A stretch of 64,000 nt of DNA from an uncultured Alphaproteobacteria bacterium. GTDB lineage: Bacteria > Pseudomonadota > Alphaproteobacteria > Rs-D84. The position numbers and the translations under genes were made by a program. Of this stretch, positions 1 through 53,100 are shown one piece after another. The number at the start of each line of letters is the position of its first letter. Positions within the stretch are counted from its first letter, which is position 1. The DNA is taken from assembly GCA_944393245.1 (NCBI GenBank), contig CALXZM010000003.1:103838-167837 (forward strand). The letters are read 5' to 3'. Below the pieces are notes generated by a model, which saw only the letters and a list, made by a program, of their open reading frames with translations, did no database searches and was not told the origin of the DNA.

Positions 1-3000
1 GCAATTATGCCGGCAGTGGCGACGGTCAATAATCCGGCCGATGTAGAAAATTGGAGTGGTACAATCGTTGAAAAAACAGATGAAAGTGTCCCTGGGGGAA
101 TATTAAATATTGCAGCGGGGGAAAACGTTGGAAATATAAATGCAGGTACTGTTGAAAATAATAAAATTGTTTTAACAAAAACTGCTGACAAGGGAACCGC
201 AGAAGTGCTTGGCCAGGGGGCCGTGATTTACAGTCATGGCGATATTGCGGCAATTAATGGAACATTTAAAAATAATTCAATTTCAAATACATCGGAAACT
301 GCAACCAAGGCAACGGCCAATGGGGGCGCGTTCGCATTGTATGCTGGGACCAATATCGGTGAAATAAATGGCGATTTTATTGGCAACAGTGTCAGTTCAA
401 CATACAGTGGTGATGGAACAACTGAATACACCAGTGGCAGTCAAATATCGGCCGGTGGTGGTGCCATGCATATAGAGGGCCAATATGGTAATTCTGCTGT
501 TAAAATAGGAACAATCACAGGTAACTTTATTGGTAACAGTGCAACTGGTGATGGGTATGCAAATGGTGGTGCAATTTATATCAAGGGCGGTGCAGATCGT
601 GCAGGACAGCAGGGGTATCTTGTTTCTGTTGATAAAATAGTTGGTAATTTTGAAAACAATTCTGTTGTTGCAAAAACTGGTACATCGGCAAATAAAAAAG
701 CATCCACAGGTGGGGCGATTTCAATTAAAAATGCTGAAAAAGATGTTACAGGGGCAACTGTAAATATTGTCGGGAATTTTACAAACAATTCGGTTACAAC
801 AAATGGTACTGATGCGCTGGGGGGGGCAATTTATAACGAAGGTGCATTGACCGTTAGTGGCGATTTTATAAACAATATTGCAAAGTCAGAAACTGGGGCT
901 GCATGGGGTGGCGCAATTAACAATACTGGTGATTTGGTAATTAAGGGTGGAAAAATGATTACCGATAACAGTGCTGGATTTGGTGGTGCCATCTGGAATG
1001 AAGGCAATATGACATTTGATTTGGAATTTGATGGTGATAATCGGTATATTGTATTCGGTAATAACCAGGCAACCGCAGAATTGGGGGCCGGTGGTGCAAT
1101 TTATAACAAGGGCACAATAGATAATTTGTCACATGCGTTGTTCCAGTATAACAGTGCATTTCAGGGCGGCGCAATTAACAATAATATTTCTGGGGTAATT
1201 AATAATATTTCGGCGTCAACATTTGCCAATAATAATGCGGGTTGGTCCGCTGGTGGTGCAATCCGTAACCAGGGTAAAATCGGGACTATGTCTGGGTTGA
1301 TTTTCCGTGAAAACAAGTCTGGTAACGGTGGTGCATTGTGGAATGGAACCGCAGGCAGTGTGGTTGAATCTTTGTCAGATGTTGACTTTATCGGCAATAT
1401 CGCTATTTCAGATAATGAAAAGGCCGAACAACAGGGTGGCGCAATAACAAATGCCGGCAGAATAAATTTGATTTCTGATGCTGATTTTACCAGTAATCAG
1501 GCCGGGGTTCGTGGCGGGGCAATTGCCAATGTGGCCCCCCAGGGTGAATCTGATAATTATATCAAGTTACAGGATACAACGTTTACCGGTAATATCGCAG
1601 GGCAAGAAGGGGGCGCAATTTGGAATACCGCCAGTGGTGTAATTGATTTTGCGGGCGATAATATATTTACTGACAATGTTGCCAATGGTGTTGGAAATGA
1701 TATTCATAATTTAGGAACGGTTAATATTGTCAGTGGTACTACATCTATTAATGGTGGTATTACAGGTGATGGTACTTTGACAATTGCAGATGGGGCAACG
1801 TTGGATATTGGAACTGCAACCATACAACAAGGGACGCTGAATCTGGATGGAATATTGGCGGCCGATTTGATTAATGAACAAGCGTTCGGTCATATCGATG
1901 TTGATAATTTTAATGTCGGTGCTGATGGAAAGTTGGATTTAACGTTTGGATCCGCAGGTACGTACGATTTCGGTGGTGTAATCGCATCCGATAAAATAAC
2001 GTACAAAGATGGTATATATAATGTTGATGTTGATGGGTCAAATATTATTGTGTCAACCAAGACTGTTGATGAAATTACCGAATCGGCGAATTTAACAACT
2101 GGGGCGGCAATTGCGTTGGTTGGGTTGGCGAACAGCGATAATATTGCGATGAATATTGCATCGTTGAATGCGCAAAATGCATTGAATAATGGCGATATTG
2201 AATATATTGAAAATGAATCAGCAAAGTTACATGCCGAAGACAAACCTGTTGCGCAATCGGTTGCAACATCTGTTCAGAACCAGGTGTTGTCGTTGGCCAC
2301 ATCACGCATGGCTGGTGGGGCGGCAATGGGACGCAGCGGTGGTGATTTGGCTGATGTTGAATATGGTGCGTGGGCCCAGGGACTGATGAACCGTACAAAA
2401 TATGCAGATAAATTCAATGGTGATACAAACGGTATTGCCGTTGGTGCAGATGCGTTGATTGGCGGTAAATATACAATTGGTATTGGGTATGCATATAACA
2501 CAACAGATGTTAATTCAAGTACGCGTGATACTGATATAACCAGCAACAGTTTGTTCCTGTATGGGCAGTACAAGCCGAACAAATGGTATGTTAACGCTGC
2601 GTTGAATTATACGATGGCAAATTATACTGAAATGACGACTGCGTTCGGTGCAATGTTTAACCCGGAATATGATGTCGATTCGTTCGGTGGCCAGGTTATG
2701 ACCGGTTATGATTTTGCATCTGGATTAACGCCGGAAATAGGTGCGCGTTATTTGCACGTGTCCCAGGATGCGTATAATAACGGACTGTTTGATATTGCGT
2801 CCAGTGATACGGATTATTTAACTGGGGTTGCGGGATTAAAGTATGCATTTACAATTGAATCCCAGGCACGTTTGAAATTCCGTCCGGAAATTCGTGCTGC
2901 GGCAACATATGATTTTATGTCTGATGCGGCAATTGCGAATGTTTCTGTGCCGGGGGCAGGGTCATATGTGGTTACCGGTGAACGTTTGTCACGTTTGGGT

Positions 3001-3126
3001 GGCGAATTTGGTATCGGATTATCCGCATTGTATGAAGGAATGGAAATTTCCATAAACTATGATTTGGATTTGCATGAACATTATACATCCCAGACCGGTA
3101 TGGTGAAATTCAGACTGGATTTCTAG
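1..3126 (+). CDS. Autotransporter outer-membrane protein, 5'-truncated by the window edge. Passenger carries Pmp-type GGA[ILV]/FxxN repeats; C-terminal beta-barrel translocator
   Basis: Long ORF running from the window start. Dozens of GGAI(Y/W/A)N and F(T/E/I)(N/G)NS(V/A) repeats. C-terminal ~280 aa show alternating beta-strand pattern ending ...MVKFRLDF. Followed by a 48-bp perfect palindrome terminator. Confidence 0.75.
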   Translation, partial: AIMPAVATVNNPADVENWSGTIVEKTDESVPGGILNIAAGENVGNINAGTVENNKIVLTKTADKGTAEVLGQGAVIYSHGDIAAINGTFKNNSISNTSETATKATANGGAFALYAGTNIGEINGDFIGNSVSSTYSGDGTTEYTSGSQISAGGGAMHIEGQYGNSAVKIGTITGNFIGNSATGDGYANGGAIYIKGGADRAGQQGYLVSVDKIVGNFENNSVVAKTGTSANKKASTGGAISIKNAEKDVTGATVNIVGNFTNNSVTTNGTDALGGAIYNEGALTVSGDFINNIAKSETGAAWGGAINNTGDLVIKGGKMITDNSAGFGGAIWNEGNMTFDLEFDGDNRYIVFGNNQATAELGAGGAIYNKGTIDNLSHALFQYNSAFQGGAINNNISGVINNISASTFANNNAGWSAGGAIRNQGKIGTMSGLIFRENKSGNGGALWNGTAGSVVESLSDVDFIGNIAISDNEKAEQQGGAITNAGRINLISDADFTSNQAGVRGGAIANVAPQGESDNYIKLQDTTFTGNIAGQEGGAIWNTASGVIDFAGDNIFTDNVANGVGNDIHNLGTVNIVSGTTSINGGITGDGTLTIADGATLDIGTATIQQGTLNLDGILAADLINEQAFGHIDVDNFNVGADGKLDLTFGSAGTYDFGGVIASDKITYKDGIYNVDVDGSNIIVSTKTVDEITESANLTTGAAIALVGLANSDNIAMNIASLNAQNALNNGDIEYIENESAKLHAEDKPVAQSVATSVQNQVLSLATSRMAGGAAMGRSGGDLADVEYGAWAQGLMNRTKYADKFNGDTNGIAVGADALIGGKYTIGIGYAYNTTDVNSSTRDTDITSNSLFLYGQYKPNKWYVNAALNYTMANYTEMTTAFGAMFNPEYDVDSFGGQVMTGYDFASGLTPEIGARYLHVSQDAYNNGLFDIASSDTDYLTGVAGLKYAFTIESQARLKFRPEIRAAATYDFMSDAAIANVSVPGAGSYVVTGERLSRLGGEFGIGLSALYEGMEISINYDLDLHEHYTSQTGMVKFRLDF

Positions 3127-11873: not shown

Positions 11874-12242
11874 ATGAAAAAAATTTCCATTTTTGCTGCT
11901 GTTTGCACATTGGTTGGCGGCGCGGCAATGGCTGATTTTCAGCCGAATAATCCACATCAGGCGGGTGGCTTTGTCGGTGGAAACGAGGCTATTGTTACAG
12001 TAAAGCAGGTAAAAGAAATGCGTGATGATGTTCCAGTTATTGTCCAGGGACATATCGTTCAGCGTATGGGCGATGAAAAGTATTTGTTCGAAGACGCAAC
12101 CGATTCAGTTACTGTTGAAATAGATGACAAGGATTGGCGTGGTCAGACAGTTACACCGTCAGATACGGTTAAATTGTATGGCGAGGTTGATGCCGGCATG
12201 TTCAAAACAGAAATTGATGTCGGTTATGTTGAAAAATTGTAA
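11874..12242 (+). CDS. BOF (YgiW/YdeI) family periplasmic OB-fold protein
   Basis: Signal peptide plus the conserved ...FEDATDSVTVEIDDKDW...KLYGEVD... core typical of the YgiW/YdeI OB-fold family. Terminator hairpin 12243-12273. Confidence 0.7.
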   Translation: MKKISIFAAVCTLVGGAAMADFQPNNPHQAGGFVGGNEAIVTVKQVKEMRDDVPVIVQGHIVQRMGDEKYLFEDATDSVTVEIDDKDWRGQTVTPSDTVKLYGEVDAGMFKTEIDVGYVEKL

Positions 12243-12296
12243 TAAAAAATCCCGCCAACCGCGGGATTTTTTAGTTACTGGTTATTCGTGGCTTGT

Positions 12297-13192
12297 ATAT
12301 ACCCTGTCATTGCGAGCGTAGCGAAGCAATCCATTATTTACCTTTGTGTTCCATAATGTGTCGCTCGGGTACTGCGTACCCTGTGCGTATCCTCGTATTT
12401 GTTCAAACTGCGCAATTGCTTGTTTTCACATACTCGGATTCATCGCGAGTGAAACGAAGCAATCCAGTAAATATGCGCGACTTTGATTATAAATGGATTG
12501 CCGCGCCACTAACGTGGCTCGCAATGACAAGGTTGGGTGCATAATTGTATTATTATCACAGATATTACGAATTGTGTCATTGCGAGCGTAGCGAAGCAAT
12601 CCATATGCTGTTACCCGTTATTTGTAAGTCGTATGCCTTTTGTAATTGCAAGCAACGCGAAGCAATCCCTTCTTTATCATCGTGTTCCATACTGCGTACC
12701 CTGTGCGTATCCTCGTATTTGTTCAAACTGCGCTATCGCTTGTTTTCACATACTCGGATTCATTGCGAGCCACATTAGTGGCGTGGCGATCCAGGGTTGC
12801 AATATGTCACGCGTCGCGCGGACAATATTTACTGGATTGCTTCGCTACGCTCGCAATGACAAATAGATTTATGGCACAGCATATACTTATTTATGGGGCA
12901 TTTGGTGTTGTACCTTTCAAATATTTTTAATATCTCAGTATAACAATCCTAATATACTTACCCGCACCCAACTTTGTCATCGCGAGCCACGTTAGTGGCG
13001 TGGCGATCCAGGGTTGCAGTATGTCGCGCGTCGCGCGGACAATATTTACTGGATTGCTTCGCTACGCTCGCAATGACAAAGGAAAGACACAAGTCACGAA
13101 TAGCTAGCCATGGGTAACTAGTAAACGTATCTGGATTGCTTCGCGTTGCTCGCAATGACAAAGGAAAGACACAAGTCACGAATAGCGAGCCA
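12297..13192. repeat. Cluster of nested short palindromic repeat elements (MITE/REP-like): ~10 copies of a 27-bp core GTCATTGCGAGCGTAGCGAAGCAATCC in both orientations, plus two ~80-bp and two ~95-bp duplicated units
   Basis: Core at 12305-12331, 12575-12601, variant at 12642-12668. Reverse copies 12834-12860, 13051-13077, 13132-13158. Partials at 12445-12465, 12516-12528, 12761-12771, 12976-12988. 80-bp unit at 12372-12450 and 12692-12770. 95-bp unit at 12766-12862 and 12983-13079. Confidence 0.8.
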
Positions 13193-13254
13193 ACGGCACA
13201 GGTAACGGTGGTGGTCCGGCGGTAAAGAAAAATCCCGCCAGTTGGCGGGACGTT

Positions 13255-15954
13255 TTATGATGCGCATTTATTATTAGAAAATTGTACTTCTACCTTGCGG
13301 CAATTTTTATCATACTTGCTGGTGCTGTTACATTGGGTCGAACCAACACCGCTGGCTGTTATGTTTGACGCGGACAGCCCACCAGATACCAGTGCATTTT
13401 TAACCGCATTTGCACGTCGTTCGGATAGTGGCTGATTTATTGCATCGGTACCGCTGTTATCTGTGTGACCGGTAACGGTAATACAATAATCTGTATTGGT
13501 GCCAACCTGGGCTTTAACGTCTGTGACAAAGGTGTTCAGAACACTTTGTGCATCGGATGTTAAATCTGACGAGTTCAATTCAAACAGGTTGCCTGCATTC
13601 AATGTAATTGTTGGAATTTCGACAACTGGTTGAAGAATTTCGGTTATTGCGGGAATCGTCTGCTTTGTAACGCATTGACCCTGGGCATTGATTTCGTGTG
13701 TTGCGGTCGGGCAGTGGCATTTTGGTGTTGCGTCACTGCTTAAAGTATATCCGTCGGTGCAACTGCAATCACCGGTGTTCGGGTCAACGGTGACGTGTCC
13801 GGCGGAAGTATCACATTTTGCCGTTACGGTTGGTGCTGTAGGGGTAACACACGTATTGTTTTCACCGGGTAATGTTCCGTCTGGACAGTCACAGGTGTTA
13901 TTCACAGAAACCATATCGCCGGGACAGGATTCGCACATATTTGTATTTGCGTTATGTATGTATTTTGTGTTTGTGCATACGCAGTTCGGATATGTTCCAG
14001 TTGCGTCAGACGGACATTTAGCCGTAGATTCAGCGTCCGGCAATTTTGCGGTATTGTCGCGTAATTTCTTTAATGGTTCATATTTTGCCAGAATTTCGTC
14101 AGAACTTTCGCGGGGTTTGTCACCAACATAGTTCGTTAAAACATTGCCGGCAATCCCAACCAATGCACCTGCACCGGCAACAATCGCACCCGTCGTTAAT
14201 TGCGATGCTGTTTCCGCACGCTGCGCCGCCCATTCTGCCGCATCCGAACCAGTCGGATTGGACAACGCACGCGATATTGACGCATAGGCACCATCGGTTA
14301 TACCAGTCGATACATTGTCATATAATCCAGATGTTGCCGCATCCAGAATAACTTCGGATTCTATACCAGGGGCCATCCCCAGGGACTCTTTACGCGTTTT
14401 TAAATCTGCCGCCAATGTCGTATATTCGTTATATATTGGCAATAATACGTTTGCACCGGGTAAAACGATTCCTGTTTCACCACCAGTAATGGTCATGCCC
14501 GCACCATAATCGCATTTGAATGTTGCCAGATATGCCACCATATCACGTTCTGCGTCCGCATCAGCATTTTGTTCGGCCAGTGCGGATGCAACCTGCATTC
14601 CGCCAATACCCATTGCACCCATTGATGCGCCACCAACCATGCGGTTTGCCAACGATTGTTCACGTTCACGCATCGCATCGGCGTTTTCCTGTAATTCCGC
14701 GATTTGCTTTTGGGCATCTGCCTGGGACAGGGTCGGTTCGATGCAAGATTTTTTATCATTGCTGATGCTGTATCCGTCGCGACAGGCGTCTATAATACAT
14801 ACCTCAACCCCGGCGGTGGAATCGTATTCACGATGTGCAGATGTAGCATTTTCCGGCATCGGACTGCAATTGCCAGATATAGCAATACATTTGCCGTCCG
14901 ATACTTCGTACCCGGCATCGCATTCAGTTGCGTGACAGACGCCAAGCTTTAGCTCACCGGCCGTTGCGTGTTCGATTTGTTGAACTTGGGCGTCGGTACA
15001 GGGACCTTCTCTGACATCACAGGCGGTGCCAGCATCGTTTAGTAAATATCCATTGTTACACTTTTTAATTTTGCATTTTAGTGTATTGTTTTCCCAAACA
15101 TATTCGGATTTTGATGCATTTGCATCGGTTGCGGTGCATTCCTTGCCAACCTGGTCGACACATTGTGCAGTATTTCCTGTTCCAACCAATTTGTAACGGT
15201 CAGATTCACATTCGGTTGGGTAACAACCATTATCTTTGTCAGTTCTTGGCTCTGCTTTTTTGGCATGTAACTTTTTTAATTGTTCGGGACCACAGGCAAT
15301 AGATATTGCAGCGGGCAAGTTTTCTGTTTCCGCTTCTAATGTTACTGTTATAGAATTATCTGTTTTTGATATTGGAACATTTTTTGTTTTATAGAAGGCA
15401 AAAGAAATTTCCAACTCTGTTACGTCGTTTGGAACATTTATAGAAAATTTACCATCATTGTTTGTATATGTATAATCTGAATTATTCAGTTTTTGGTTAT
15501 CTGGCTTAACTATTTTGACGGTGGCACCCGGCATAGGGGTGTTATCACTATCATATACCGTGCCGGTAATTAAATACGTCGCCGATGCAGATGAATTAGC
15601 AGAATCTGTCGCGGTTGATGCAGGTGTTGTGTCGGGTGTGGACGTTGAAGCATCTGAATCAGTAGTTAGATATCCGTATGCACAACGATGCCCAATTCCA
15701 GTATAAGTACATTCATAATATTTGCCATTGGCTTCTATTGAGCATGTCAACAATTCACACTCTATGGATGCATCCAGAACAGCGGATAGATCTGTACCAG
15801 TTAATTGATTTGTATTCGCTAAATCTGAGATATACTTACATAATTCTGATTTTGGTTTGGATAAATTGTCCCCCTGACAATCGGGGTGTGTTGTTTGGCC
15901 GAATGCGGGCAGGGCGAATAATACTGCAAAAAATCCGAACAAATACTTTTTCAT
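13255..15954 (-). CDS. Large exported OmpA-family protein: signal peptide, carboxypeptidase-regulatory-like domain, Cys-rich repeats, C-terminal OmpA peptidoglycan-binding domain
   Basis: N-terminal MKKYLFGFFAVLFALPAFGQ. YLITGTVYDSDNTPMPGATVKIV... CarbopepD_reg-like. Repeated C..C..GY......C modules. C-terminal TGHTDNSGTDAINQPLSERRANAV motif of OmpA_C. Terminator on the minus strand at 13224-13254. Confidence 0.75.
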   Translation of the reverse strand: MKKYLFGFFAVLFALPAFGQTTHPDCQGDNLSKPKSELCKYISDLANTNQLTGTDLSAVLDASIECELLTCSIEANGKYYECTYTGIGHRCAYGYLTTDSDASTSTPDTTPASTATDSANSSASATYLITGTVYDSDNTPMPGATVKIVKPDNQKLNNSDYTYTNNDGKFSINVPNDVTELEISFAFYKTKNVPISKTDNSITVTLEAETENLPAAISIACGPEQLKKLHAKKAEPRTDKDNGCYPTECESDRYKLVGTGNTAQCVDQVGKECTATDANASKSEYVWENNTLKCKIKKCNNGYLLNDAGTACDVREGPCTDAQVQQIEHATAGELKLGVCHATECDAGYEVSDGKCIAISGNCSPMPENATSAHREYDSTAGVEVCIIDACRDGYSISNDKKSCIEPTLSQADAQKQIAELQENADAMREREQSLANRMVGGASMGAMGIGGMQVASALAEQNADADAERDMVAYLATFKCDYGAGMTITGGETGIVLPGANVLLPIYNEYTTLAADLKTRKESLGMAPGIESEVILDAATSGLYDNVSTGITDGAYASISRALSNPTGSDAAEWAAQRAETASQLTTGAIVAGAGALVGIAGNVLTNYVGDKPRESSDEILAKYEPLKKLRDNTAKLPDAESTAKCPSDATGTYPNCVCTNTKYIHNANTNMCESCPGDMVSVNNTCDCPDGTLPGENNTCVTPTAPTVTAKCDTSAGHVTVDPNTGDCSCTDGYTLSSDATPKCHCPTATHEINAQGQCVTKQTIPAITEILQPVVEIPTITLNAGNLFELNSSDLTSDAQSVLNTFVTDVKAQVGTNTDYCITVTGHTDNSGTDAINQPLSERRANAVKNALVSGGLSASNITASGVGSTQCNSTSKYDKNCRKVEVQFSNNKCAS

Positions 15955-19444: not shown

Positions 19445-19570
19445 TACATATATATTTATAGTATGTATAATGAACCCGGCTGATATTTCAGCCGGGTTTT
19501 GTTATATAGTTTTTTTCTGGACATATAATTTGATTGTATGTTAAGATATTTTGTACAGAGAGAATTGTTC

Positions 19571-22500
19571 ATGAAGTACATCAGATTATTACTGTTTGCA
19601 TTGTTTTTAATTCCGGCGGGTTCCGCGGTTGCGGCGGTTTCTGTGCCAAATAATGATTTTTTGGTTGCGGCGCAATTGTTGGCTGCGGCAAAAAATGCCG
19701 ATATTCAACAGGTGCAAAATTTAATAAATGCGGGTGCTGATATCAATTATGTTGACAGTACGGGGTTGTCGTTGGTTTGTACCGCGCTGATGAATAATGA
19801 TGTGCGGGCGGCGCAAATTTTACAAATGTATGGTGCGGATGCGTCACAATGTGACAGGCAAATTAAGCAATACGAATCGCGAACACAACCAACGGAAAGT
19901 GGGGGACTGTTCAGCGGATTATCCTCCGCCCAGACGATATCTTTGGCGGCGGCGGGGGCCGCCGTTGTTGTAGGTGGACTGTTTTTGTTGACGGACTGGT
20001 TGGATCCAGGAAATGAAAACGACAGTGGTTCATCATCTGGCAATCGGCCAAACGGTGGCGGTGATGGTGGTGGTGATAATGGCGGGGCCACGGCGGGGGC
20101 GGAAATTCCCGTGGGACCAGCATATTTTACATCTGATGGCGAAATTGCGTATTCAACGGCCAAGTATCAGGAAAATCTGGCACAATGGGATCCGTCGGTT
20201 GGCGGGGTGCGTGAAGCGGACTTTAATTATTTCCGCCCAACAACACAGCCGGCAAATAATTATATTGTTGATGGCATTTTGTTGCCGTTGCAAAACTATT
20301 TACTGATAATGCATGGTTATTCGTCGTTTGCAAACGGATATATGGGGCAATACACCTTTCGTGACGGTAACAGGGCACCACAAAAGGTTTTGAACACAAC
20401 CGGTGGTGGAAAACCAATTCGTACGGCATTAATTACCGCCAATGGTGTAAATCCAGCGGGATCGGCCGGGCGGTCTGTGGATGGTATTGCATGGTCCAGT
20501 TCAACTGCGGCTGATGCAAATACTGGGGCATATGATAAATATGCGAATTATAATGATCCATCTGGGGGAAATTTAGGCAGCGAATTGGCAAATTTAGGCG
20601 CAAGCAGTGCGTTTGATTTGTCCGGCAGTGGTACCGCAATGAATCCGTTTGCGTCGGCAACAGACAGTGCGTTGGCCAAAATTGTTGCCGGATGGGAAGC
20701 GGGCGGTCGTACACTGGGGGATTTGTATGGATTTGCACCAAACAGCCAGTTGGCAATTTATCGTACCGGAAATGGCAAGGGATGGGTTGATATTGCAGAC
20801 CCAACCAGTGGTGAAAGCGTTGGTGATTTGACTGATTCTGGGGTGGCCGGGGTGGCTGGAAAAATTAACCCGGGTGATACAATTACGTTTAATGGAAAAA
20901 CTTATACTATTTCATCTGCGCTGGACGATGCGGGGGTTACAAATCCAACAATTACAATAAATGGCAAAGTTTATAAACTGGGGCCTGGCAGTACCCTATT
21001 AAAGGGAACCTGTACCGGGGAAGAGGAAGAGTGTACTGATGTGTCTGATATTGCCATATATCAGGGTACGGACGGGTTTTATTATTTTAATACCACGGGC
21101 GGGGATACCGTTGACGGGGTGTATATGATTGATGAAAACAAGATATATGCACAAAAGGAATTAAAAGATATTGATATCAAGACTTTTGAAGCATTATATA
21201 ACATGCCAAAGGTTTATGAAATTGGTGATACAAATGGTTTGGCGTCAATTGCTGTAACTGTATTGAATCCAAAATCACGCGATATTTCATATATGAATGT
21301 GGGTGGGGTTGAATCGTATATTTCTGTTGCTGCGAATGGAAATGGCCGTACTGGATTTATGAATTTAGTTAATAATTATTATGAAAAAGATTCATCCGAC
21401 CCGCAAACACAGGGACAGTATGCGAATGCTGTATTGGGGAATTACGTTGCTGGAATGCCAATATTAATTATGCCGGCCGGCGAATTTGAATATGGTTTAG
21501 GTGACGGTAAATCAATGGATGTATTGGATGCAACGTTTGAAAACTATGCGCCCGCAATTTATACTAATTTGGAACATTTGTTCATGACGGTTGTGGCGGT
21601 ACAACATTCCAAGGGGACATCGGCCACGGACAGCATTGGTGATTATGGTAATGGCACTGGTGAAGATTTTGGACCGTTGTATTTATCAATGTGGACGGAC
21701 AATAACGGTACGCCCGATGATACCAGTGATGATATTACATATTCTTCACGTAAATGTGGTATTGCAGGACTGGGGGTAAATGGTGTTGATCCGTGGTGTT
21801 TTTCTGCCGCCGGGCCGAACGCAGAAATGGCGACCGCGTCCGCGGCTGGTGCTGTGACCGCGTTAAAGGGGGCGTTCCCTTATATGAATAATGGTGATAT
21901 TTTCACTTTGATGGCGTTGACTGCGGATGGGCCGTATTTGGGCACTGACAGTGCGGGCAAGGCGTTTACGATTGATGGGTTGGTTTCTTACTTAAAATCG
22001 ATGTATTCATTGCCGCCTGATTATCATGCTGATCAATTAACAGGCCAGGATTATTTGGATGCCTTTGCCGAAGTTTACGGTTACGGTATGATAAACCTGG
22101 AACGTGCAATGACGCCCGGTAACAAGATTTATTATTATGACGGAAACAGCATTGTTTCTGGTAACGGAAATGCATATTGGCGTGCGGCGTCGGGTACAAT
22201 GTTCCGGGCGTCGTCCGCGTTCAGTCCCAGTACCGCGACAATTAGCGCGCCGTTCTTTGACATATTGGAAAGTGTGAATGGTGATATGTCGATGCCGCGT
22301 GTTTGGAAAAATGAATTTGCGTTGGGTGTTACCGACAAGCGCGGGTTGTATATGGGTGACGTATTGGGTGAATTCAAAACTCGTAATGACGCCCCGCAAC
22401 GTGTACAGTTTGGCAAATTTGGTTTTTCAATGGCAATATCTGAAAAGCCATATGCGGATAATTTGAATGGTTTGGATAATATTCGTTTGGATTATACGTC

Positions 22501-23350
22501 TGGCAATTGGAACTTTGCGGCCGGGTATCAACGCCATTTTACCGATGGGGCATCACGCTTTGATGGTATGTCTAATCCTATTTTGGGATTGACGTCAAAT
22601 GCGGTGACATCGGATGTTGCGTATAATATGGGGCGTTGGTCGTTTGGGGCACGTGCGTTTTCGGGGGCAATTACCGATGAAACAATGTTGGACAGTGACC
22701 CGACCATTTCATCACAATATTTGCCTGCACGCCTGGGGTTAATGCAGGGGGCGCAATCAGATATCGCATGGCAGGGTGATAAATTTGGATTTACAACATC
22801 AATTGGTGCCGCGCACGAAAATAATACTTTGTTGGGGGCGATGTCTGGTGGTTTGTTGGATATGGGCAATGGGGATACAGTATATGTTGATTCTGAATTT
22901 CGGTACAGCCCAGCGGAAAATGTTATGCTGACCATGCGGTCAACATTTGCACGTACCACCACAGATGCCAGTGGCCAATTTATATTGGGAATGACTGACA
23001 TTTATTCAAATGCGTTCGCGTTTGGTGTTGATGCCGGTAATTTCAGTTTCAGTGTATCACAACCGTTGGGGGTCAGTAATGGTAATTTGATGTATCCGCA
23101 TGCTGAATATGAAATTATTGATTTAGGGGATGGCAAATATGATTTGGCAATAAATAATTTGCATATTGAAAATCTGGATTTAAGCCCAGATAAACGTGAA
23201 GTGCGCTTTACCGGTGCATATCGTCATAATTTTGGTGAATTTACAGATGGTGCAGTTGGGTTTATTTATCGTGTAAATCCTAATAATACAGATGTGTTTG
23301 GTAATGAATCCATATTTATGATGAAAATGACGCATCGATTGGGCATATAA
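19571..23350 (+). CDS. Very large exported protein (~1259 aa): N-terminal ankyrin-like repeat, Gly/Asp-rich linker, possible degenerate subtilase-like segment, C-terminal beta-barrel-like region
   Basis: Signal peptide MKYIRLLLFALFLIPAGSAVAA. LLAAAKNADIQQVQNLINAGADINYVDSTGLSLVCTALMNNDVRAAQILQMYGADA fits ANK consensus. GPNAEMATASAAGAVTALKGAFP resembles the S8 GTSMAAP..AG motif with the Ser replaced. Last ~300 aa have alternating amphipathic strands. Hairpin terminator 23362-23400. Confidence 0.55.
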   Translation: MKYIRLLLFALFLIPAGSAVAAVSVPNNDFLVAAQLLAAAKNADIQQVQNLINAGADINYVDSTGLSLVCTALMNNDVRAAQILQMYGADASQCDRQIKQYESRTQPTESGGLFSGLSSAQTISLAAAGAAVVVGGLFLLTDWLDPGNENDSGSSSGNRPNGGGDGGGDNGGATAGAEIPVGPAYFTSDGEIAYSTAKYQENLAQWDPSVGGVREADFNYFRPTTQPANNYIVDGILLPLQNYLLIMHGYSSFANGYMGQYTFRDGNRAPQKVLNTTGGGKPIRTALITANGVNPAGSAGRSVDGIAWSSSTAADANTGAYDKYANYNDPSGGNLGSELANLGASSAFDLSGSGTAMNPFASATDSALAKIVAGWEAGGRTLGDLYGFAPNSQLAIYRTGNGKGWVDIADPTSGESVGDLTDSGVAGVAGKINPGDTITFNGKTYTISSALDDAGVTNPTITINGKVYKLGPGSTLLKGTCTGEEEECTDVSDIAIYQGTDGFYYFNTTGGDTVDGVYMIDENKIYAQKELKDIDIKTFEALYNMPKVYEIGDTNGLASIAVTVLNPKSRDISYMNVGGVESYISVAANGNGRTGFMNLVNNYYEKDSSDPQTQGQYANAVLGNYVAGMPILIMPAGEFEYGLGDGKSMDVLDATFENYAPAIYTNLEHLFMTVVAVQHSKGTSATDSIGDYGNGTGEDFGPLYLSMWTDNNGTPDDTSDDITYSSRKCGIAGLGVNGVDPWCFSAAGPNAEMATASAAGAVTALKGAFPYMNNGDIFTLMALTADGPYLGTDSAGKAFTIDGLVSYLKSMYSLPPDYHADQLTGQDYLDAFAEVYGYGMINLERAMTPGNKIYYYDGNSIVSGNGNAYWRAASGTMFRASSAFSPSTATISAPFFDILESVNGDMSMPRVWKNEFALGVTDKRGLYMGDVLGEFKTRNDAPQRVQFGKFGFSMAISEKPYADNLNGLDNIRLDYTSGNWNFAAGYQRHFTDGASRFDGMSNPILGLTSNAVTSDVAYNMGRWSFGARAFSGAITDETMLDSDPTISSQYLPARLGLMQGAQSDIAWQGDKFGFTTSIGAAHENNTLLGAMSGGLLDMGNGDTVYVDSEFRYSPAENVMLTMRSTFARTTTDASGQFILGMTDIYSNAFAFGVDAGNFSFSVSQPLGVSNGNLMYPHAEYEIIDLGDGKYDLAINNLHIENLDLSPDKREVRFTGAYRHNFGEFTDGAVGFIYRVNPNNTDVFGNESIFMMKMTHRLGI

Positions 23351-23472: not shown

Positions 23473-23892
23473 ATGAAAATAGTACAAACAATCAAGGATT
23501 ATTTTGCACCTGCATACAGTAAACGTTTCGCAAACCCTGTCGAAGATATATGTGTGTTGGGAAATTTATGTAGTAATTCTTTATATTTAACGGCAAACAA
23601 CGGAAAAGGGTATTATTATTTTTTCCCAAAAGCACCAAGTCAAATCAAAGTTGCTAAATATTTGTTTAATAGAAATGGTGTTCCCGTTAAAATACATTAC
23701 AGCAAATATTATATGGGTGTGCAAACAAAGGTGTTGCGTATTCAGAATAAACAAATGGCTGCTGATAAAAAGGTTAAAGATTTTGTTTATAACGTGGATA
23801 TGGCTGCAAAAAATTCTGCAAGCTTTACGAAACAACAATTGGCTGAAAAATTGGTGTTATTAAATAAACAAATGAATGGCAAATCAAAATAA
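23473..23892 (+). CDS. Hypothetical protein (139 aa), Lys/Tyr-rich
   Basis: ORF with downstream hairpin terminator 23891-23916. No recognisable domain. Confidence 0.4.
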   Translation: MKIVQTIKDYFAPAYSKRFANPVEDICVLGNLCSNSLYLTANNGKGYYYFFPKAPSQIKVAKYLFNRNGVPVKIHYSKYYMGVQTKVLRIQNKQMAADKKVKDFVYNVDMAAKNSASFTKQQLAEKLVLLNKQMNGKSK

Positions 23893-23937
23893 AAACCGCC
23901 CAACTGGGCGGTTTTTATTGTAATTTCCAAAATATAA

Positions 23938-23967
23938 TTGACGTACCCTGGAATTTTTGGGTAAAAT
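23938..23967 (+). promoter_or_regulatory. Sigma70-like promoter TTGACG-17-TAAAAT upstream of the invertible leader
   Basis: ttgacg(23938-43) + 17 bp + taaaat(23962-67). A near-identical promoter recurs at 39580-39609. Confidence 0.5.
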
Positions 23968-23980
23968 AAAATCGAACAAA

Positions 23981-24085
23981 TGCCTAATACAAACCAACGA
24001 TTGCATTAGGCATATTTATTTTTGTAACAATCCCGGATTTCTGCATTTTATTCTCCCCTTTCGTGCCTAATGCAATCGTTGGTTT
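23981..24085. promoter_or_regulatory. Putative invertible leader switch: perfect 22-bp inverted repeats (23991-24012 / 24064-24085) flanking a 51-bp cassette (24013-24063) that encodes RBS+ATG+11 codons. Currently OFF for the downstream gene
   Basis: rc(aaaccaacgattgcattaggca) = tgcctaatgcaatcgttggttt. The cassette is identical (51/51) to 39488-39538, where it is in the productive orientation for gene 38592-39521. Confidence 0.6.
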
Positions 24086-24983
24086 GTGTGCGGTTGTTTT
24101 GGTTGGATTTGGGGTTACATCAACCGCGCTTGGGGCGGGCTTTCGCGATGGGGGAACCAGCAGTGTGTATACATGTCAGGCACCGGGTATGGGTACTGTA
24201 ACGGGATGGGACCCAACCAATTGGTCCCAGGCACCAATTGAATATGGCGCACGCAGTGAATTAAGCAGTCAGGATGCAATACCAAATTGCAAAACAACAG
24301 AAGTAATTTCATATATATCAGATTCGCGCGTAGGCGCATCAAAGAGAAATTCTTGTGCGAAATGTAATACTGGATACCGTTTGGTATCGTATACCGCGCC
24401 ATCAATAAGACAACCCGATTGTATCGTTACATGGGAAGAATGTGAAAAGGATGAATTACCAGACGATCCCCTGGAACTGTGTCCAGATGAGTGTAAAATG
24501 TTGGGGGGCTGGATGGATGTGCCCAAACAAACCGGCCTTCAAACGCAATGTGATCCACTGGAACAAAAGTGTTTATACAGATGTGGCCCAGGTTATTATA
24601 ATGCGGCTTTATCTATTGGGACAATGTGTCAGCCGTGCCCAGATAATGTGCTATCCACATCTTGTGCTGGTGGTGCAGATTACAATTCTGTATGCTGTGA
24701 ACGTGGATATTACAGACAGACCATAACAAGAAACACATCAACTGGGCTGATAATTAGGTATAAAGATGTTACATGTCCGCGTTGTCCGTCGTTGGGTGGG
24801 GTGTATGGAACAACACCGATGAATCAGTGTGTGTCATCTATTACAGCATGTTATATTCCGGCAAATACACCAATAAAAAGCACGCCGGGAACTTATGTAT
24901 TTACCAATGATTGTGATTATTCCACGACTGCTGCTGGCACAGGTACTGTAACGCCAGTTCAGCCAGATGTGGCAAATCCATAG
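24063..24983 (+). CDS. Small secreted Cys-rich protein, family member A (306 aa). As assembled it has a GTG start and no RBS (switch OFF)
   Basis: N-terminus PNAIVGLCAVVLVGFGVTSTALGAGFRDGGTSSVYTCQAPG is near-identical to 38592-39521. 24 Cys. C-terminal ACYIPANT...GTYVFTNDCDY motif is shared by all three family members. Confidence 0.65.
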   Translation: MPNAIVGLCAVVLVGFGVTSTALGAGFRDGGTSSVYTCQAPGMGTVTGWDPTNWSQAPIEYGARSELSSQDAIPNCKTTEVISYISDSRVGASKRNSCAKCNTGYRLVSYTAPSIRQPDCIVTWEECEKDELPDDPLELCPDECKMLGGWMDVPKQTGLQTQCDPLEQKCLYRCGPGYYNAALSIGTMCQPCPDNVLSTSCAGGADYNSVCCERGYYRQTITRNTSTGLIIRYKDVTCPRCPSLGGVYGTTPMNQCVSSITACYIPANTPIKSTPGTYVFTNDCDYSTTAAGTGTVTPVQPDVANP

Positions 24984-25070
24984 TAAACAAAATAAAAATA
25001 TTTATGTGTAATTTTAGTTTGTGTAAATAATAAACCGCCCCGCATTGCGGGGCGATTTATTATGCAAATA

Positions 25071-38591: not shown

Positions 38592-39521
38592 TTATTCATC
38601 TTCGGTATAATTACACTTTTGGGTAAACTGGAATGTGCCTTCGGTCATACGTATACTTGTATTCGGGGGTATATAACACCTGGTTATATGCGATGGTGTC
38701 GGTGCAAACATTGGACATTCTAGCAGGGTTGTCCCATATACCAAGGGAAGACCTATCCCAATTGATGGACAACGCAAACAATCATAATCCTTGGCGCGGA
38801 CCCCCGTTATTCCACCACCGGATTCAACGTAATTATTATCTATTAAATAATATCCAACATCACAACATGGCATAATCGTACCGGCAGGACAACCGTCCAT
38901 AGTATGATCTGGACACGCCTTGCAATTTGGTCCAGAACCGGCTACCATCATACCACCTGCATTATAATAATTGGATTTACATTGATATTCGCATTTGTTG
39001 GTGCTGGTGTTACAACGTGTTTGATAATTTTTACCGCTAACATTCATCCAGGATGTTCTACCCTCGCACGCCAGACCATCGCATGGGGTGTCCTTTACAC
39101 ATTCTTCCCATGTAACAATACAGTCCTGTTGTCTTTGTGACGGCATTGTGTGTGATACCAAATGGTATCCAGTATTACATGCAGAACATGTATTACGTTT
39201 GCCCCCACCAGACATCATCCCACCGTTGGGTTTCGCATAATATTCTATGGTTGTTGTTGTTTTACAATTTGGTATGGGATCGTCACTGGCCAAATCACTT
39301 TGTCCGACATATCCATCGACTGGTACCGACCAATCTGTTGTGTCCCAACCCACCATGGTGAAGCCGGGATCCTGGCACGTATAAAAACTGTCCGTTCCCC
39401 CATCGCGAAAGCCCGCCCCAAGCGCGGTTGATGTAACCCCAATTCCAACCAAAACAACCGCACACAATTGAACGATTGGATTAGGCATATTTATTTTTGT
39501 AACAATCCCGGATTTCTGCAT
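38592..39521 (-). CDS. Small secreted Cys-rich protein, family member B (309 aa). Leader cassette in ON orientation
   Basis: GGGGAG RBS + ATG inside the 51-bp cassette (39488-39538) gives MQKSGIVTKIN then MPNPIVQLCAVVLVGIGVTSTALGAGFRDGG, near-identical to the 24063 gene. 30 Cys. C-terminal RCYIPPNT...GTFQFTQKCNY. Confidence 0.7.
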   Translation of the reverse strand: MQKSGIVTKINMPNPIVQLCAVVLVGIGVTSTALGAGFRDGGTDSFYTCQDPGFTMVGWDTTDWSVPVDGYVGQSDLASDDPIPNCKTTTTIEYYAKPNGGMMSGGGKRNTCSACNTGYHLVSHTMPSQRQQDCIVTWEECVKDTPCDGLACEGRTSWMNVSGKNYQTRCNTSTNKCEYQCKSNYYNAGGMMVAGSGPNCKACPDHTMDGCPAGTIMPCCDVGYYLIDNNYVESGGGITGVRAKDYDCLRCPSIGIGLPLVYGTTLLECPMFAPTPSHITRCYIPPNTSIRMTEGTFQFTQKCNYTEDE

Positions 39522-39654
39522 TTTATTCTCCCCTTTCGTGCCTAATCCAAACGGTGGTTTAAAAACAGTAAAAATATGATTGACGCACCCCAGAATTTTC
39601 GGCTAAAATAGAAACAAACAAATGCCTAATGCAAACCACCGTTTGGATTAGGCA
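39476..39654. promoter_or_regulatory. Nested putative invertible elements between divergent family genes: 12-bp IR (39476-39487 / 39539-39550) around the 51-bp leader cassette; 19-bp IR (39539-39557 / 39636-39654) around a 78-bp promoter segment
   Basis: ttggattaggca / tgcctaatccaa flank the leader. tgcctaatccaaacggtgg / ccaccgtttggattaggca flank the promoter. Hairpin tgcctaat-N16-attaggca at 39623-39654, as at 23981-24012. Confidence 0.55.
39580..39609 (+). promoter_or_regulatory. Sigma70-like promoter TTGACG-17-TAAAAT, currently pointing at gene 39670-40320, inside the IR-flanked 78-bp segment
   Basis: ttgacg(39580-85) + 17 bp + taaaat(39604-09). Homologous to the promoter at 23938-23967. 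Confidence 0.5.
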
Positions 39655-39669: not shown

Positions 39670-40320
39670 ATGAAAAAATTTTTTATCATATTGGCAATTA
39701 GTGTTGGAATTATAACAAGTGCTGACGCTACGTCTACGGTATCGCCTTGTACATCGATGTTAAGGCCATACGATTGTGGTAATAATTGTTGCGCTGCAAA
39801 TGCGGCCAGTTGCAAAACGCAATGTCCAAATATAGTAATAACGGAATGCGAAGGTTTGGTATGTGAAAATAAAATGACATGGACCAATTATGGTGATCCT
39901 GGAAAGCAGATAAAGTGTAATACGGCTTCAGATACCTGTGAATACCGTTGTAATCCAGATGGTTATTACAGAACCAGTGTTGGTGGTGGTTCGGCCATGC
40001 GATGTGCAGAATGCCCAGACAATGCAACATGTTCACAAGGGACAAGTGTATGCTGTAATCAGGGACATTATCCTGTAACAAATGTTTATATGGCCCCTGG
40101 ATTGACCGGCCAGATAACAGAATATACATGTCCATCTTGTCCAGGGTATTTGCGTTATTTATCTGCAACTTCACCAGCTGGGACGTATGTGCCTGGTACA
40201 ACGGATGCCGCTTCATGCCCTGCTGCTATAGGTGCGTGTTATATCCCCAGTGGGACATATTCTGGTGATATAACTGGCAGATTTCAGCTGACTGGTAAGT
40301 GTCACTATAAAGAATCATAA
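39670..40320 (+). CDS. Small secreted Cys-rich protein, family member C (216 aa)
   Basis: GGGGAGAAAC RBS. Signal peptide MKKFFIILAISVGIITSADA. 24 Cys. Shares CEYRCNPDGYY, CAECPDN, C-terminal GACYIPSGT...GRFQLTGKCHY with members A and B. Terminator 40338-40362. Confidence 0.7.
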   Translation: MKKFFIILAISVGIITSADATSTVSPCTSMLRPYDCGNNCCAANAASCKTQCPNIVITECEGLVCENKMTWTNYGDPGKQIKCNTASDTCEYRCNPDGYYRTSVGGGSAMRCAECPDNATCSQGTSVCCNQGHYPVTNVYMAPGLTGQITEYTCPSCPGYLRYLSATSPAGTYVPGTTDAASCPAAIGACYIPSGTYSGDITGRFQLTGKCHYKES

Positions 40321-50182: not shown

Positions 50183-53100
50183 TTATTGGTATGTAATTTT
50201 GAAGTTTGTCGGTGATTGATTTTGGCATTGGGTTTGACCGTTCAGCCATGACCAAGCATCACCGCCAAATGTTCTTACACATGATACATTATCACCAACC
50301 TCAACAGATTCATTGTATGAACATATTGGGTTTTGTGGCTGGGGGTCTGGTATATTATCCGGTACATTGTACAGGGGCGCCATATATTGTCCGTTTTTGG
50401 TAACAATGACATATTCGCCGTTACAATGTACCTTTTTACCAGATGGATACGCGGCGTCTGCGTCTGGTTCAGAAACATCAGATTTTTCGCCGATACAAAA
50501 TACGTAACCTAGACCATCGTTGCCGTAATAATCACCACTGACCTGGAATGACATAATGAATGTTGCATTTGCAGGTAAACACAAGCCACCGTCAGCGGTT
50601 GGGGCGGCACCTTCGACAGAACCGCCGGCGGGACCTATGGTGCTTGGGTTTTTGACATTACCCCAATAGGCAGTTGTTTTTCCCCAATCCAAATTATTAA
50701 TACGATTCTGTAATCCGCCCAGGCAGCAGTTTCCAAACGTATCGCGTCCACCGTTGGTGCTGTCTGATGTTTTGCAGCAGTTTGTTGTATTGCCAACATT
50801 TACACGCCAGAATTTGTCCGTTGGGCATAAATCGCCATCGCCAGATATTCCAGATTGTGATACGCATACTGTTGCCTGGGCCGCCGCATCCCATGTTGCA
50901 ATGTATCCAGGGCCACATGATGTATCGCGACAACTGTCCAGTGCGGTATCTGTTCCTGTATTTTTGGCGAACCAGGACAGTAATGTTTCGTCGGATGCCA
51001 CGGTTGGGATTTTGATTTGGTTATGTGAATTTTCTGCGGACAGATTTGTTGCAGGGTGCACTTCGCAATTGCCCCATATCTTTTCCGCCAAACGGCATAC
51101 CTGGCATTCGTCTGATGATGCATTATTGTAACTGATTGTTGTGCCGTCAAACGTAAATCCACAATCGTCGGCGCATATATCAAATATGCAATTTGTTGTG
51201 CCAGATTCATCCAATATGCATGATGTGGACGTAAAGTTAGATGATAATTCATCATTTGTTATGTCGTCATTTGTATATTGACCATAAATTGATGAATAAA
51301 ATGAGCCGTTGGTGTCAATCAGGCCGTCAGCCTGTTGTAATTCTGTTATTTTATTAATAGATGTTATACCAGCGTCAGCAACACAATTTAACACTTCGTC
51401 CCAACATGCGGTACGGTTGATAATGGCCTTTCTGTTAACAGAAGTTTGGATGTTTTCACACAAACCAAAGTTGCCAGAAATAGATTTGCATGATTGGATA
51501 ATGCAGTTACGGCCAACTTCGCGACAGGTTTGCATAATGGTTTCGTATGTTTTGTCGCTGGCGATTTCTGTCATGCCAGATGACCAATCTGTGCCACCGT
51601 CAACAGTGTCTAGTAATGCGGTACAGGCATTTTGAACCTCGGAACACATTTGTTTGACGGTTTTGTCGGCCTCTACACCAAAAACAGACAGGGAACGTGC
51701 ATCAAATTCTTCCAGTGAATCATAGGCATCGGTCAGGCATTGGGTGGTCAAAGTGGTGCAACTTTGGCGCACTTCTTCTAATTTCTTTTCCTGGGCTAAT
51801 TTTATTTGCGCCAATGCATCTTCGATAAAACTGTCCCATACGTAATCGGCAATGTCCTGACATTTTTCGGTGGCTGATTCCAAAAACATCTTTTTTGATG
51901 TTAAATATGATACGAATTTGGCGTTGCCCGGCGCGCCAGTCCATGTTTGATTTGGCCCCGGGCGGGTTATTAAATTTCCTAAATTGACCAATTCTGATGT
52001 TAAAATGGCTTCGCCGGTGGATGGATCTATGTATTGACCACTGATGTCCAGGCATTGTTCCAGATTTTCACCGCAAACAGATGTGTTTGTCAGCATATCC
52101 AACATTTTCTTTTTACATGTTAATATGTCATCTGAATTACGCTGTTGGTATGTGTCCAGACGGGATATGTCCAACAGGGCACTGCCTTCACGGATTTTTT
52201 CACGGGCCAAATCCTGTTGTGTTTGATATGCCTTGGCCACGGTATTACAATCTTGTTCAATGGCCATTTGATATCCACTTTCCACTATATCCAGTTCGTC
52301 CTGGGTACAAACCTCTAATGCCATTTCACGGCATATTGGTAATGCGGATGCGTATAATTCTGTGCCGGATTTTGCCGTTGTGGACGCGCCAGCCAATGAA
52401 TCGACATTGTCAAATGCGGCATCCACATTCAATGATAATGATATTGGTGCCAGGTTGGCATCAAATGAACTGGTGTCAAATGTGTCATTTAACTTTTCAG
52501 AAATTTCATCCAGTAATTTTTTAGAATCTGAATTATCGTCCTGTTGAAATGCTATTTCGCCCTCGGTCGGTTTAAATATAGCCTCGGCATCTTCTTTGTC
52601 CATGTTTACGGTTAACAAGCGTTGGTTAAAATCCAACAATTTATCTTCTACCTGGGCCAGTTGCGCTTTGACATCATCAAATTCATTTATGCGTGACGAA
52701 CATGCACAACGTTTTAACTGGCTGTCCTTGTTGGCGCAAAATTCGTCCATGCAACTGTAATATACGTCGCGACATGTTGTATAATCGCGGTTCATGATTT
52801 CTTCGGCGGTCATGGTTCCCGCACGCGACAGACGGGCACCAGATGATGTGGTCCTGCGTGCTGTGCCTGTATTTGCAGCAGTTTGAATTGCGTTGCGTGA
52901 AACCGTTGCGGCGCGGGATACTGTTGCAGTGCCACTGCGCGCACCAGATGATTGGGTCGATGGGGTGCGTGTTATTGTCCCCGTTCGTGATGTTGTTCCA
53001 ACCGTTCCGCGTGAAATGGTCGCACGTGACGGGGTGGATATAACCGTGGATGTGTTTGTTGTACCGCGTGGCAAAACATTTGTTGCCGTGCGCGCGGAAA

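Follow-up and report, generated by a model that had tools for sequence, protein, structure and literature searches.

Phase variation by DNA inversion is well known, and it almost always flips promoters or swaps coding domains; the invertible promoters of Bacteroides (Mpi, Tsr), for example, are many individual small promoter switches served in trans. The DNA analysed here is a stretch of 64,000 nucleotides from an uncultured Alphaproteobacteria bacterium of the Rs-D84 lineage (GenBank assembly GCA_944393245.1, contig CALXZM010000003.1, positions 103,838 to 167,837), called the window in the following. At 24 kb, it shows a 51-bp cassette with a Shine-Dalgarno (SD) sequence and a start codon, enclosed by inverted repeats at the 5' end of a gene for a Cys-rich secreted protein (gene A). 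Several described systems come close to this element. In the Mycoplasma pulmonis vsa genes and the mba / UU172 genes of Ureaplasma, a block containing promoter, ribosome-binding site (RBS) and 5' coding sequence is moved, or divergent genes are toggled, via repeats that lie partly within the open reading frame (ORF) (PMC2268961; PMC3047005), and the mycoplasma vsp and vpma genes show conserved 5' untranslated region (UTR) and signal-peptide modules (PMC2268961). Clostridioides difficile cwpV has an invertible terminator-forming element between promoter and ORF and an unlinked recombinase (PMC2784873), and in this species one unlinked tyrosine recombinase, RecV, serves several switches, such as cwpV and flgB (PMC2784873; PMC7446863). 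The mpl (P35) promoter invertons of Mycoplasma penetrans are many small switches per genome, each with its own surface-protein gene, which share a common repeat consensus and are served in trans (PMC3047005). In the 'partial intergenic' invertons or gene-altering programmed inversions (PhaVa, Milman et al.), one repeat is in the gene and the other is intergenic (10.1101/2023.03.11.532203; PMC9881135); start codons and ribosome-binding sites are nowhere mentioned in the PhaVa text. Candidatus Enterousia (order Rs-D84) comprises uncultured gut bacteria with genomes of ~0.75-1.0 Mb (PMC12306168), and the paper describing it mentions neither phase variation nor inversions.

The region 23981-24095 of the window is probably a miniature site-specific inversion switch that would govern translation and export, not transcription, of the gene A product. 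It shows a perfect inverted repeat of 24 nt (100% complementary, repeat finder) with 51 nt enclosed; an earlier note, made from the letters of the window, had recognized the perfect pairing and undercounted its length as 22 bp. The enclosed cassette, 24013-24063, matches 39488-39538 on the same strand with 0 mismatches, which 0 of 100 shuffles reproduced, and the claim of the note that a 51/51 identical cassette is reversed relative to its own gene holds. This identity is the core of a conserved 5' module of ~230 bp common to gene A and its paralogue at 39.5 kb (gene B), and does not stop at the cassette: identity is ~85-90% in the promoter, 100% in the cassette, ~99% in the next ~90 bp of signal-peptide coding sequence and ~55% beyond, and the differences inside the module cluster in the site spacers and inner arms. 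The 64 kb contain seven TGCCTAAT cores, all of them at the 24-kb and 39.5-kb loci (2.1 expected; 0 of 100 shuffles reached seven). Upstream of the cassette, the sequence TGCCTAAT-N16-ATTAGGCA, which the note had taken for an accessory hairpin, is instead a full palindromic recombination site formed by a 13-bp arm, a 6-bp spacer and a second 13-bp arm. Downstream of the cassette lies a partial site, whose spacer CGTTGG is the exact reverse complement of the full-site spacer CCAACG. The partial site is read as (M/V)PNAIVGL inside gene A and is thus within the 5' coding region, in agreement with the proposal that part of the recombination site lies inside the signal-peptide coding sequence; 17 loci of the family described below read through their site in the same way.

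The predicted promoter of gene A is outside the repeats, and no recombination site is found upstream of it. The fixed promoter noticed earlier was given a 17-nt spacer; the 30-mer is present at 23938-23967, its spacer is 18 nt, and it recurs at 39580-39609 with one mismatch. Its assignment follows the consensus and its homology with 39580-39609, the payload of a promoter segment proven to be invertible; both point to promoter activity at 23938-23967. The terminator of the upstream 139-aa gene shields the switch promoter from upstream transcription. Neither orientation of the 24-kb cassette shows a hairpin followed by a T-run, so that it is not a one-way terminator of the cwpV type, and Rfam over 23800-24300 gave only sub-threshold matches, located on the terminator hairpin (terminator artefacts).

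As assembled, gene A has a GTG start and no SD upstream, and the RBS and ATG of the cassette read on the minus strand into a dead-end frame, MQKSGIVTKINMPNAIVGLY followed by a stop codon; both points had been made before and stand in the assembled sequence. In-silico inversion of the cassette joins SD, ATG and 11 codons in frame and yields a 317-aa protein starting MQKSGIVTKINMPNAIVGLCAVVLVGFGV, which is the full signal peptide that the note had expected. In the RNA model of the assembled (OFF) leader, the GUG lies within a 25-bp stem formed by the repeats (probability of being unpaired 0.03) and no SD precedes it, and in the leader of the inverted (ON) form, the SD (0.55) and the AUG (0.92) are unpaired inside a 51-nt loop. 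The modelled accessibility of the start, 0.03 vs 0.92, and the in-frame joining upon inversion suggest that payload orientation alters the gene A start. The ON form supplies the sole basic residues (K3 and K9) of the signal-peptide n-region, so that residual GUG initiation in the OFF form would yield a poorly exported product. The AlphaFold2 model of the switched protein is all-beta and disulfide-rich, with a mean predicted local distance difference test (pLDDT) value of 76. The switched proteins are presumably surface or secreted antigens or adhesins.

In the proposed mechanism, the fixed promoter at 23938-23967 would transcribe across the full 32-bp site and then the 51-bp cassette, and the partial site, with its one good arm, reverse-complement spacer and TTT, would form codons 12-19 of gene A. 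A recombinase encoded elsewhere would swap strands at the centres of the two sites, which are separated by 83 bp, and so flip the intervening DNA. With the cassette forward, the mRNA would carry the SD GGGGAG, the AUG and MQKSGIVTKIN fused in frame to MPNAIVGLCAV, and thereby the whole signal peptide (ON). In the reversed state seen in the assembly, only a stem-buried GUG without SD would be left, and the charged n-region would be missing (OFF). Inversion would consequently be expected to affect both translation and export. The same recombinase system would flip the 72-bp promoter segment within 39539-39654, between the divergent paralogues gene B and gene C.

Natural inversion of the promoter switch and of an orthologous RBS+start cassette was observed between assemblies (comparison sequences are given as L numbers). 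L095 is base-for-base equal to the window in the switch region, except that 39561-39632 is exactly reverse-complemented, and the proteins encoded by genes B and C are identical; L096, L097 and L099 show this segment in the orientation of the window. The 39561-39632 promoter segment is also inverted in L001, which shares 98% identity with the window across 11 kb. In L004, orthologous at 94% to gene B and clpX, the promoter faces gene B and the cassette is reversed. The cassette of the gene B orthologue is therefore present in both states, ON in L001 and OFF in L004, and between these two the inner-arm markers (CAAA vs CAAT) changed sides and the outer sequences did not move, which is the pattern expected of a crossover inside the site. 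The inversion of this orthologous cassette, together with the same design at 17 loci, gives comparative support to the view of the earlier note that the invertible unit is the translation-initiation region and not a promoter. L008 and L009 are orthologous loci in two species of metagenome-assembled genomes (MAGs): their flanks are 92% identical and their switches are 98% identical in opposite orientation. Several contigs terminate at or inside switches with overlaps of 127 bp, as expected from assembly-graph branching.

The GTDB representative genomes were scanned with the 32-bp site pattern TGCCTAAT-NN-AA-N8-TT-NN-ATTAGGCA. The scan gave 71 loci, when ~1 was expected by calculation. Virtually all of them belong to MAGs of gut Alphaproteobacteria (Candidatus Enterousia, 'Rickettsiales bacterium' and relatives), and a single MAG has as many as 13. 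The profile of the full site, from 78 examples, is the 13-6-13 palindrome TGCCTAATccAAA-SSNNSS-TTTggATTAGGCA, and each switch contains one full site and one partial site (good arm, reverse-complement spacer and TTT). The distance between site centres is 83-86 bp, or ~8 helical turns, in 57 of 63 site pairs; two other pairs show 74 and 97 bp. Spacer mismatches between partners at positions 1-6 number 3, 4, 0, 0, 15 and 13, respectively (47 pairs), and hence the two central base pairs always match. The two loci of the window differ in their full-site spacer (CCAACG vs CCACCG). The idea that the spacers form a locus-specific address code was rejected in general, since 40 of the 78 full sites have CCACCC or CCACCG. 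L002 (9840-9960) and L007 (150-270) are distant relatives, in which the two partner sites of a switch both have the arm core TGCCGAAA in place of TGCCTAAT; this co-variation of the arms suggests a co-evolving recombinase specificity. L059 (CAZJGX010000037.1), labelled as uncultured Muribaculaceae, matches the alphaproteobacterial loci in its 32-bp site and in the architecture of its flanks and is probably mis-binned.

When payloads were classified by an in-silico inversion test, three types were found on one chassis: a promoter, a one-way terminator hairpin and an RBS+start cassette. Promoter-type switches include those at 39.5 kb in the window and in L001, L008/L009, L012, L066 and L072. The terminator type has a CCCGG-N4-CCGGG hairpin flanked by a T-run on just one side; it is found at ~10 loci (Table 1), in both orientations, and its payload looks like an orientation-dependent terminator between fixed promoter and gene, following cwpV-like logic. 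The RBS+start type, to which the 24-kb switch belongs, contains 17 loci, with an SD, a start codon and ~11 codons whose frame crosses the site as (M/L)PN and enters a hydrophobic signal sequence. Most of the genes that follow the switches encode signal-peptide proteins, and the largest cluster has 21 members, including the family of genes A, B and C. At a confidence slightly short of an even call, the ~85-bp unit can be proposed as a distinct 'mini-inverton' class: near the smallest synapsable DNA loop, with ~8-turn phasing, one unlinked recombinase over at least 10 loci, interchangeable payloads and a site translated as Met-Pro-Asn.

Table 1. Features of the two switch loci of the window, and terminator-type relatives in other assemblies
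Feature	Position	Strand	Basis or remark
Stem-loop terminator of the upstream 139-aa gene	23888..23919	.	Terminator scan, 14-pair stem
Left copy of the 9-bp direct repeat AAACCGCCC bounding the 1,139-bp block	23893..23901	+	Comparison with related assemblies
Predicted fixed sigma-70-like promoter, TTGACG-18-TAAAAT, facing gene A	23938..23967	+	10/12 consensus matches
Full recombination site, 13-6-13 palindrome: arm TGCCTAATACAAA, spacer CCAACG, arm ATTGCATTAGGCA	23981..24012	.	Matches family profile
Left arm of the perfect 24-bp inverted repeat	23989..24012	.	Repeat finder
51-bp cassette pointing away from gene A	24013..24063	-	SD GGGGAG 24058-24053, ATG 24046-24044, codons MQKSGIVTKIN
Gene A, Cys-rich secreted protein, 306 aa from GTG as assembled, 317 aa after inversion	24063..24983	+	No Pfam match; paralogue of genes B and C
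Right 24-bp repeat arm, partial site (site C): arm TGCCTAATGCAAT 24064-24076, spacer CGTTGG 24077-24082, then TTT	24064..24087	.	In coding sequence
Right copy of the 9-bp direct repeat AAACCGCCC	25032..25040	+	Comparison with related assemblies
Gene B, 309-aa paralogue; cassette faces gene, promoter points away	38592..39521	-	Sequence reading
Site D, arm inside gene B, spacer CGTTCA	39475..39487	-	Differs from site E at 3/6 spacer positions including the centre
Second 51-bp cassette copy, oriented to read into gene B	39488..39538	-	Identity to 24013-24063
Partial site E: arm TGCCTAATCCAAA, spacer CGGTGG, TTT; left 22-bp inverted repeat of the promoter switch	39539..39560	.	Sequence reading
72-bp invertible segment with promoter TTGACG-18-TAAAAT (39580-39609), facing gene C	39561..39632	+	Reverse-complemented in L095
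Full site F+G, TGCCTAATGCAAA-CCACCG-TTTGGATTAGGCA; right 22 bp (39633-39654) pair with site E	39623..39654	.	Sequence reading
Gene C, 216-aa paralogue sharing the Cys-rich C-terminal half, faced by the invertible promoter	39670..40320	+	Sequence comparison
Terminator-type switches, fixed promoter then hairpin then gene	L010, L019, L032, L035, L044, L062, L067, L070, L073, L078

Genes A, B and C encode paralogous Cys-rich secreted proteins with no Pfam domains, and between the divergent genes B and C the second switch (39539-39654) shows a perfect 22-bp inverted repeat enclosing 72 bp. The 39.5-kb copy of the cassette had been presented as the ON form; it does face gene B, but the locus is not simply ON, as the promoter switch points to gene C. 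Because the promoter faces 39670-40320, gene B as assembled is probably not transcribed. With gene A OFF through its cassette, gene B OFF through the promoter pointing away and gene C ON, the assembled state would fit one-at-a-time expression of a variable family. The spacers of sites D and E differ as given in Table 1, centre included, so that the two are probably not an active pair in this strain. Sites C (24064-24087, gene A) and D (39464-39487, gene B) are in inverted orientation and have a common arm and first four spacer bases (TGCCTAAT-S-CAATCGTT). Recombination between them could invert 15.4 kb of housekeeping genes and swap the 5' modules of the paralogues; no evidence for this C x D inversion was found.

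The earlier note held that the window encodes no recombinase and that the enzyme must act in trans. Pfam shows no recombinase domain in the 40 largest ORFs of the window, and window ORFs of at least 100 aa show no match to five recombinase seeds, which agrees with both statements. The phmmer search with these seeds (Hin, gamma-delta resolvase, XerC, XerD and FimB) was run against 1,758 ORFs of the window and 78 loci, and is blind to Piv/IS110-type or very divergent recombinases. Its only match was a XerC-like gene in L030 (1847-2770, minus strand), to which NCBIfam gives 292 bits against a cut-off of 335 bits; two switches of the same MAG lie within 1.7 kb of it, and it is the sole recombinase near any site. 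As a dedicated invertase, this gene was rejected, one Xer gene per ~570 kb being close to chance expectation, and a single such gene across the 78 loci suggests that the switch recombinase is unlinked. No Resolvase-type ORF was found in the window or the 78 loci in the seed search, a result compatible with an unlinked serine recombinase. In their 13-6-13 layout, their conserved inner AAA/TTT and their spacing of ~84 bp, the sites resemble substrates of loxP/FRT-type tyrosine recombinases. A serine recombinase with a 2-bp crossover would fit equally well, given that the central dinucleotide is invariant and mismatches are tolerated at positions 5-6.

The promoter, the switch and gene A together form a strain-variable block of 1,139 bp (23893-25040). 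Fifteen other assemblies encode identical flanking 139-aa and GrpE proteins, and in 14 of them only 39 bp separate the two genes and the block is absent. The gene A locus was found only in the window, L003 and the short Logan contig L082, and all three are OFF. L003 shares 100% identity with the window across 12.4 kb and is thus not an independent confirmation of the arrangement, and L082 stops inside the cassette. Several results weigh against a working switch at 24 kb. The opposite orientation of 24013-24063 was not found in these three sequences, and a scan of JGI metagenomes with a locus-A-specific 23-mer gave a single, unrelated chance match (L079). Since only the OFF form is seen, switching at this locus is a conclusion from anatomy and family behaviour and not an observation. 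Elsewhere, 14 of the 17 RBS+start loci are assembled OFF and three ON, and most of them show two spacer mismatches at the distal positions 5-6, so that some RBS+start loci may be locked. Promoter-like matches are not enriched over shuffles in this AT-rich region, the promoter call coming from consensus and homology, and the XerC-like gene of L030 is probably a housekeeping Xer(C). The exclusive OFF state at 24 kb, the bias towards OFF at the other RBS+start loci and the accessory nature of a block missing in 14 of 15 related assemblies would also suit a fossil or locked switch, in which the cassette inverted once, or arrived inverted with the 1.1-kb block, and flips no more, gene A being a decaying silenced copy. 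We consider this unlikely: the 24-kb switch is unusual in the family in combining a perfect 24-bp repeat with a perfect spacer match, better than most members, the gene A ORF is intact (306 aa), an identical cassette copy lies next to a switch shown to flip in this species, and a consensus assembly shows the majority orientation only. These features argue for ongoing switching at the 24-kb locus.

Three further explanations would dispense with inversion at this locus. That the unit is a miniature inverted-repeat transposable element (MITE) of Correia-like type, ~100 bp long and non-autonomous, whose orientation reflects insertion history, is suggested by the many copies per genome, their uniform length, terminal inverted repeats, promoter and terminator payloads and Correia-type resemblance, and by the frequent coincidence of copies with contig breaks. 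It is nevertheless very improbable, for orientation is not fixed per insertion: orthologous loci with identical or near-identical flanks differ by precise inversion only, which independent insertions fail to explain. A third conserved arm also turns one boundary into a full palindrome, many genes read the partial site in frame as part of their signal peptide, and payload orientation makes functional sense relative to the neighbouring promoter and gene. Still less credit can be given to an element acting at the RNA level only, in which the repeats would form a leader hairpin that regulates mRNA stability or translation and the DNA would stay unrearranged. A long leader stem of the 24-nt repeats is predicted in either orientation, but this leaves unexplained why SD and ATG are reversed, why orthologous loci are polymorphic in orientation and why the 13-6-13 DNA palindrome with reverse-complementary spacers is conserved, and no Rfam family is above threshold. 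An assembly artefact, with reads mis-joined across the 67 bp common to both loci (cassette and cores) and the cassette placed backwards, is equally hard to credit. The shared repeat does exceed typical k-mers, L082 terminates within the cassette and L003 is not independent of the window, but the reversed arrangement is also found in L004, L005 and L006 and at 13 other RBS+start loci, in MAGs of different studies and assemblers, and a mis-join would not produce a perfect in-frame alternative upon inversion. An inversion switch at 24 kb is the reading retained here.

Elsewhere in the window, 12240-13260 is ~1 kb of non-coding DNA with ~9 copies, in both orientations, of a palindromic unit of ~30 nt, TGTCATTGCGAGCGTAGCGAAGCAATCCA, within repeats of 80-104 nt. 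These repeats are also present at 7247-7679 of L005 and look like repetitive extragenic palindromic (REP) or MITE sequences; Tandem Repeats Finder found no repeats between 12.0 and 13.4 kb. Five further ORFs of the window (7-3126, 19538-23350, 50183-53437, 53720-55198 and 59122-63984) comprise an autotransporter with a Chlamydia PMP repeat, a Protochlamydia-type Pom porin and three ORFs of 1,084-1,620 aa without Pfam match, and none of the five carries a TGCCTAAT site.

Taken as a family, the ~85-bp switches of small-genome gut Alphaproteobacteria appear to turn genes for surface or secreted proteins on and off and to be previously undescribed. On the mini-inverton reading, the 24-kb element would be a dedicated translation-initiation and export inverton, of which no description was found in the literature. 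Its 51-bp unit contains nothing but SD, start codon and the charged signal-peptide tip, and would be a compact way of gating translation and export under a constitutive promoter. The modular family is abundant in Rs-D84 / Candidatus Enterousia, with genomes below 1 Mb, in which the papers searched mention neither phase variation nor inversions, and it suggests that these reduced-genome gut bacteria depend heavily on surface variation, as mycoplasmas do. The switches would explain truncated or GTG-start gene calls and contig breaks in Rs-D84 / Enterousia MAGs. Being very small and well defined, they also lend themselves to work on the minimal geometry of recombinase synapsis and possibly to use in synthetic switches.

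The comparison with known systems places the 24-kb element between several of them. As in vsa and mba, site-specific inversion would decide which surface-protein gene receives the translation start and signal-peptide region, one site lies within the 5' coding sequence, and the paralogues have a conserved 5' module and belong to reduced-genome, host-associated organisms; the ~230-bp module of genes A and B resembles the 5' UTR and signal-peptide modules of the mycoplasma vsp and vpma genes. In vsa, the moved block contains the promoter, the RBS and the first 714 nt, it is shuffled among many silent genes by kb-scale inversions, and a dedicated Xer-like recombinase is encoded beside the locus. 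At 24 kb, in contrast, the promoter is fixed, 51 bp would flip in place at a single gene, no recombinase is linked, and shuffling of a promoter-bearing expression site among silent genes is not seen. The position of the element between a fixed promoter and the ORF, with control after transcription initiation, is shared with cwpV and flgB, and the terminator-type relatives follow the cwpV principle. The cwpV leader, roughly 200 bp long, contains a terminator, whereas the 24-kb element would remove the SD, the start codon and the N-terminal codons, with a segment of 51-54 bp. The 39.5-kb promoter switch is of the type of the M. penetrans mpl and Bacteroides promoter invertons, but these carry promoters only and measure roughly 135-230 bp, and here one ~85-bp chassis carries any of three payloads. 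Partial intergenic invertons have the same layout, with one repeat in the gene, and are described mainly as long, shufflon-like exchanges of coding domains, unlike a 51-bp start cassette. The sites are like loxP and FRT in having 13-bp inverted arms around a short asymmetric spacer that sets orientation and must match in the partner, and unlike them in the 6-bp instead of 8-bp spacer, in the single good arm of one partner and in the mismatches of many pairs at spacer positions 5-6, which an overlap of 6-8 bp would tolerate poorly. The minimum distance between sites for Cre is reportedly close to the spacing of 83-86 bp. Hin/Gin-type serine invertase systems, with an invertase gene inside or next to the segment, 26-bp sites, an enhancer and a segment of ~1 kb or more, do not match the present switches, in which the segment is 51-72 bp and the site 32 bp. 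The 24-kb element would therefore be phase variation by site-specific inversion, a known principle, and would differ from its relatives in the promoterless 51-bp start unit, the translated site and the shared ~85-bp chassis.

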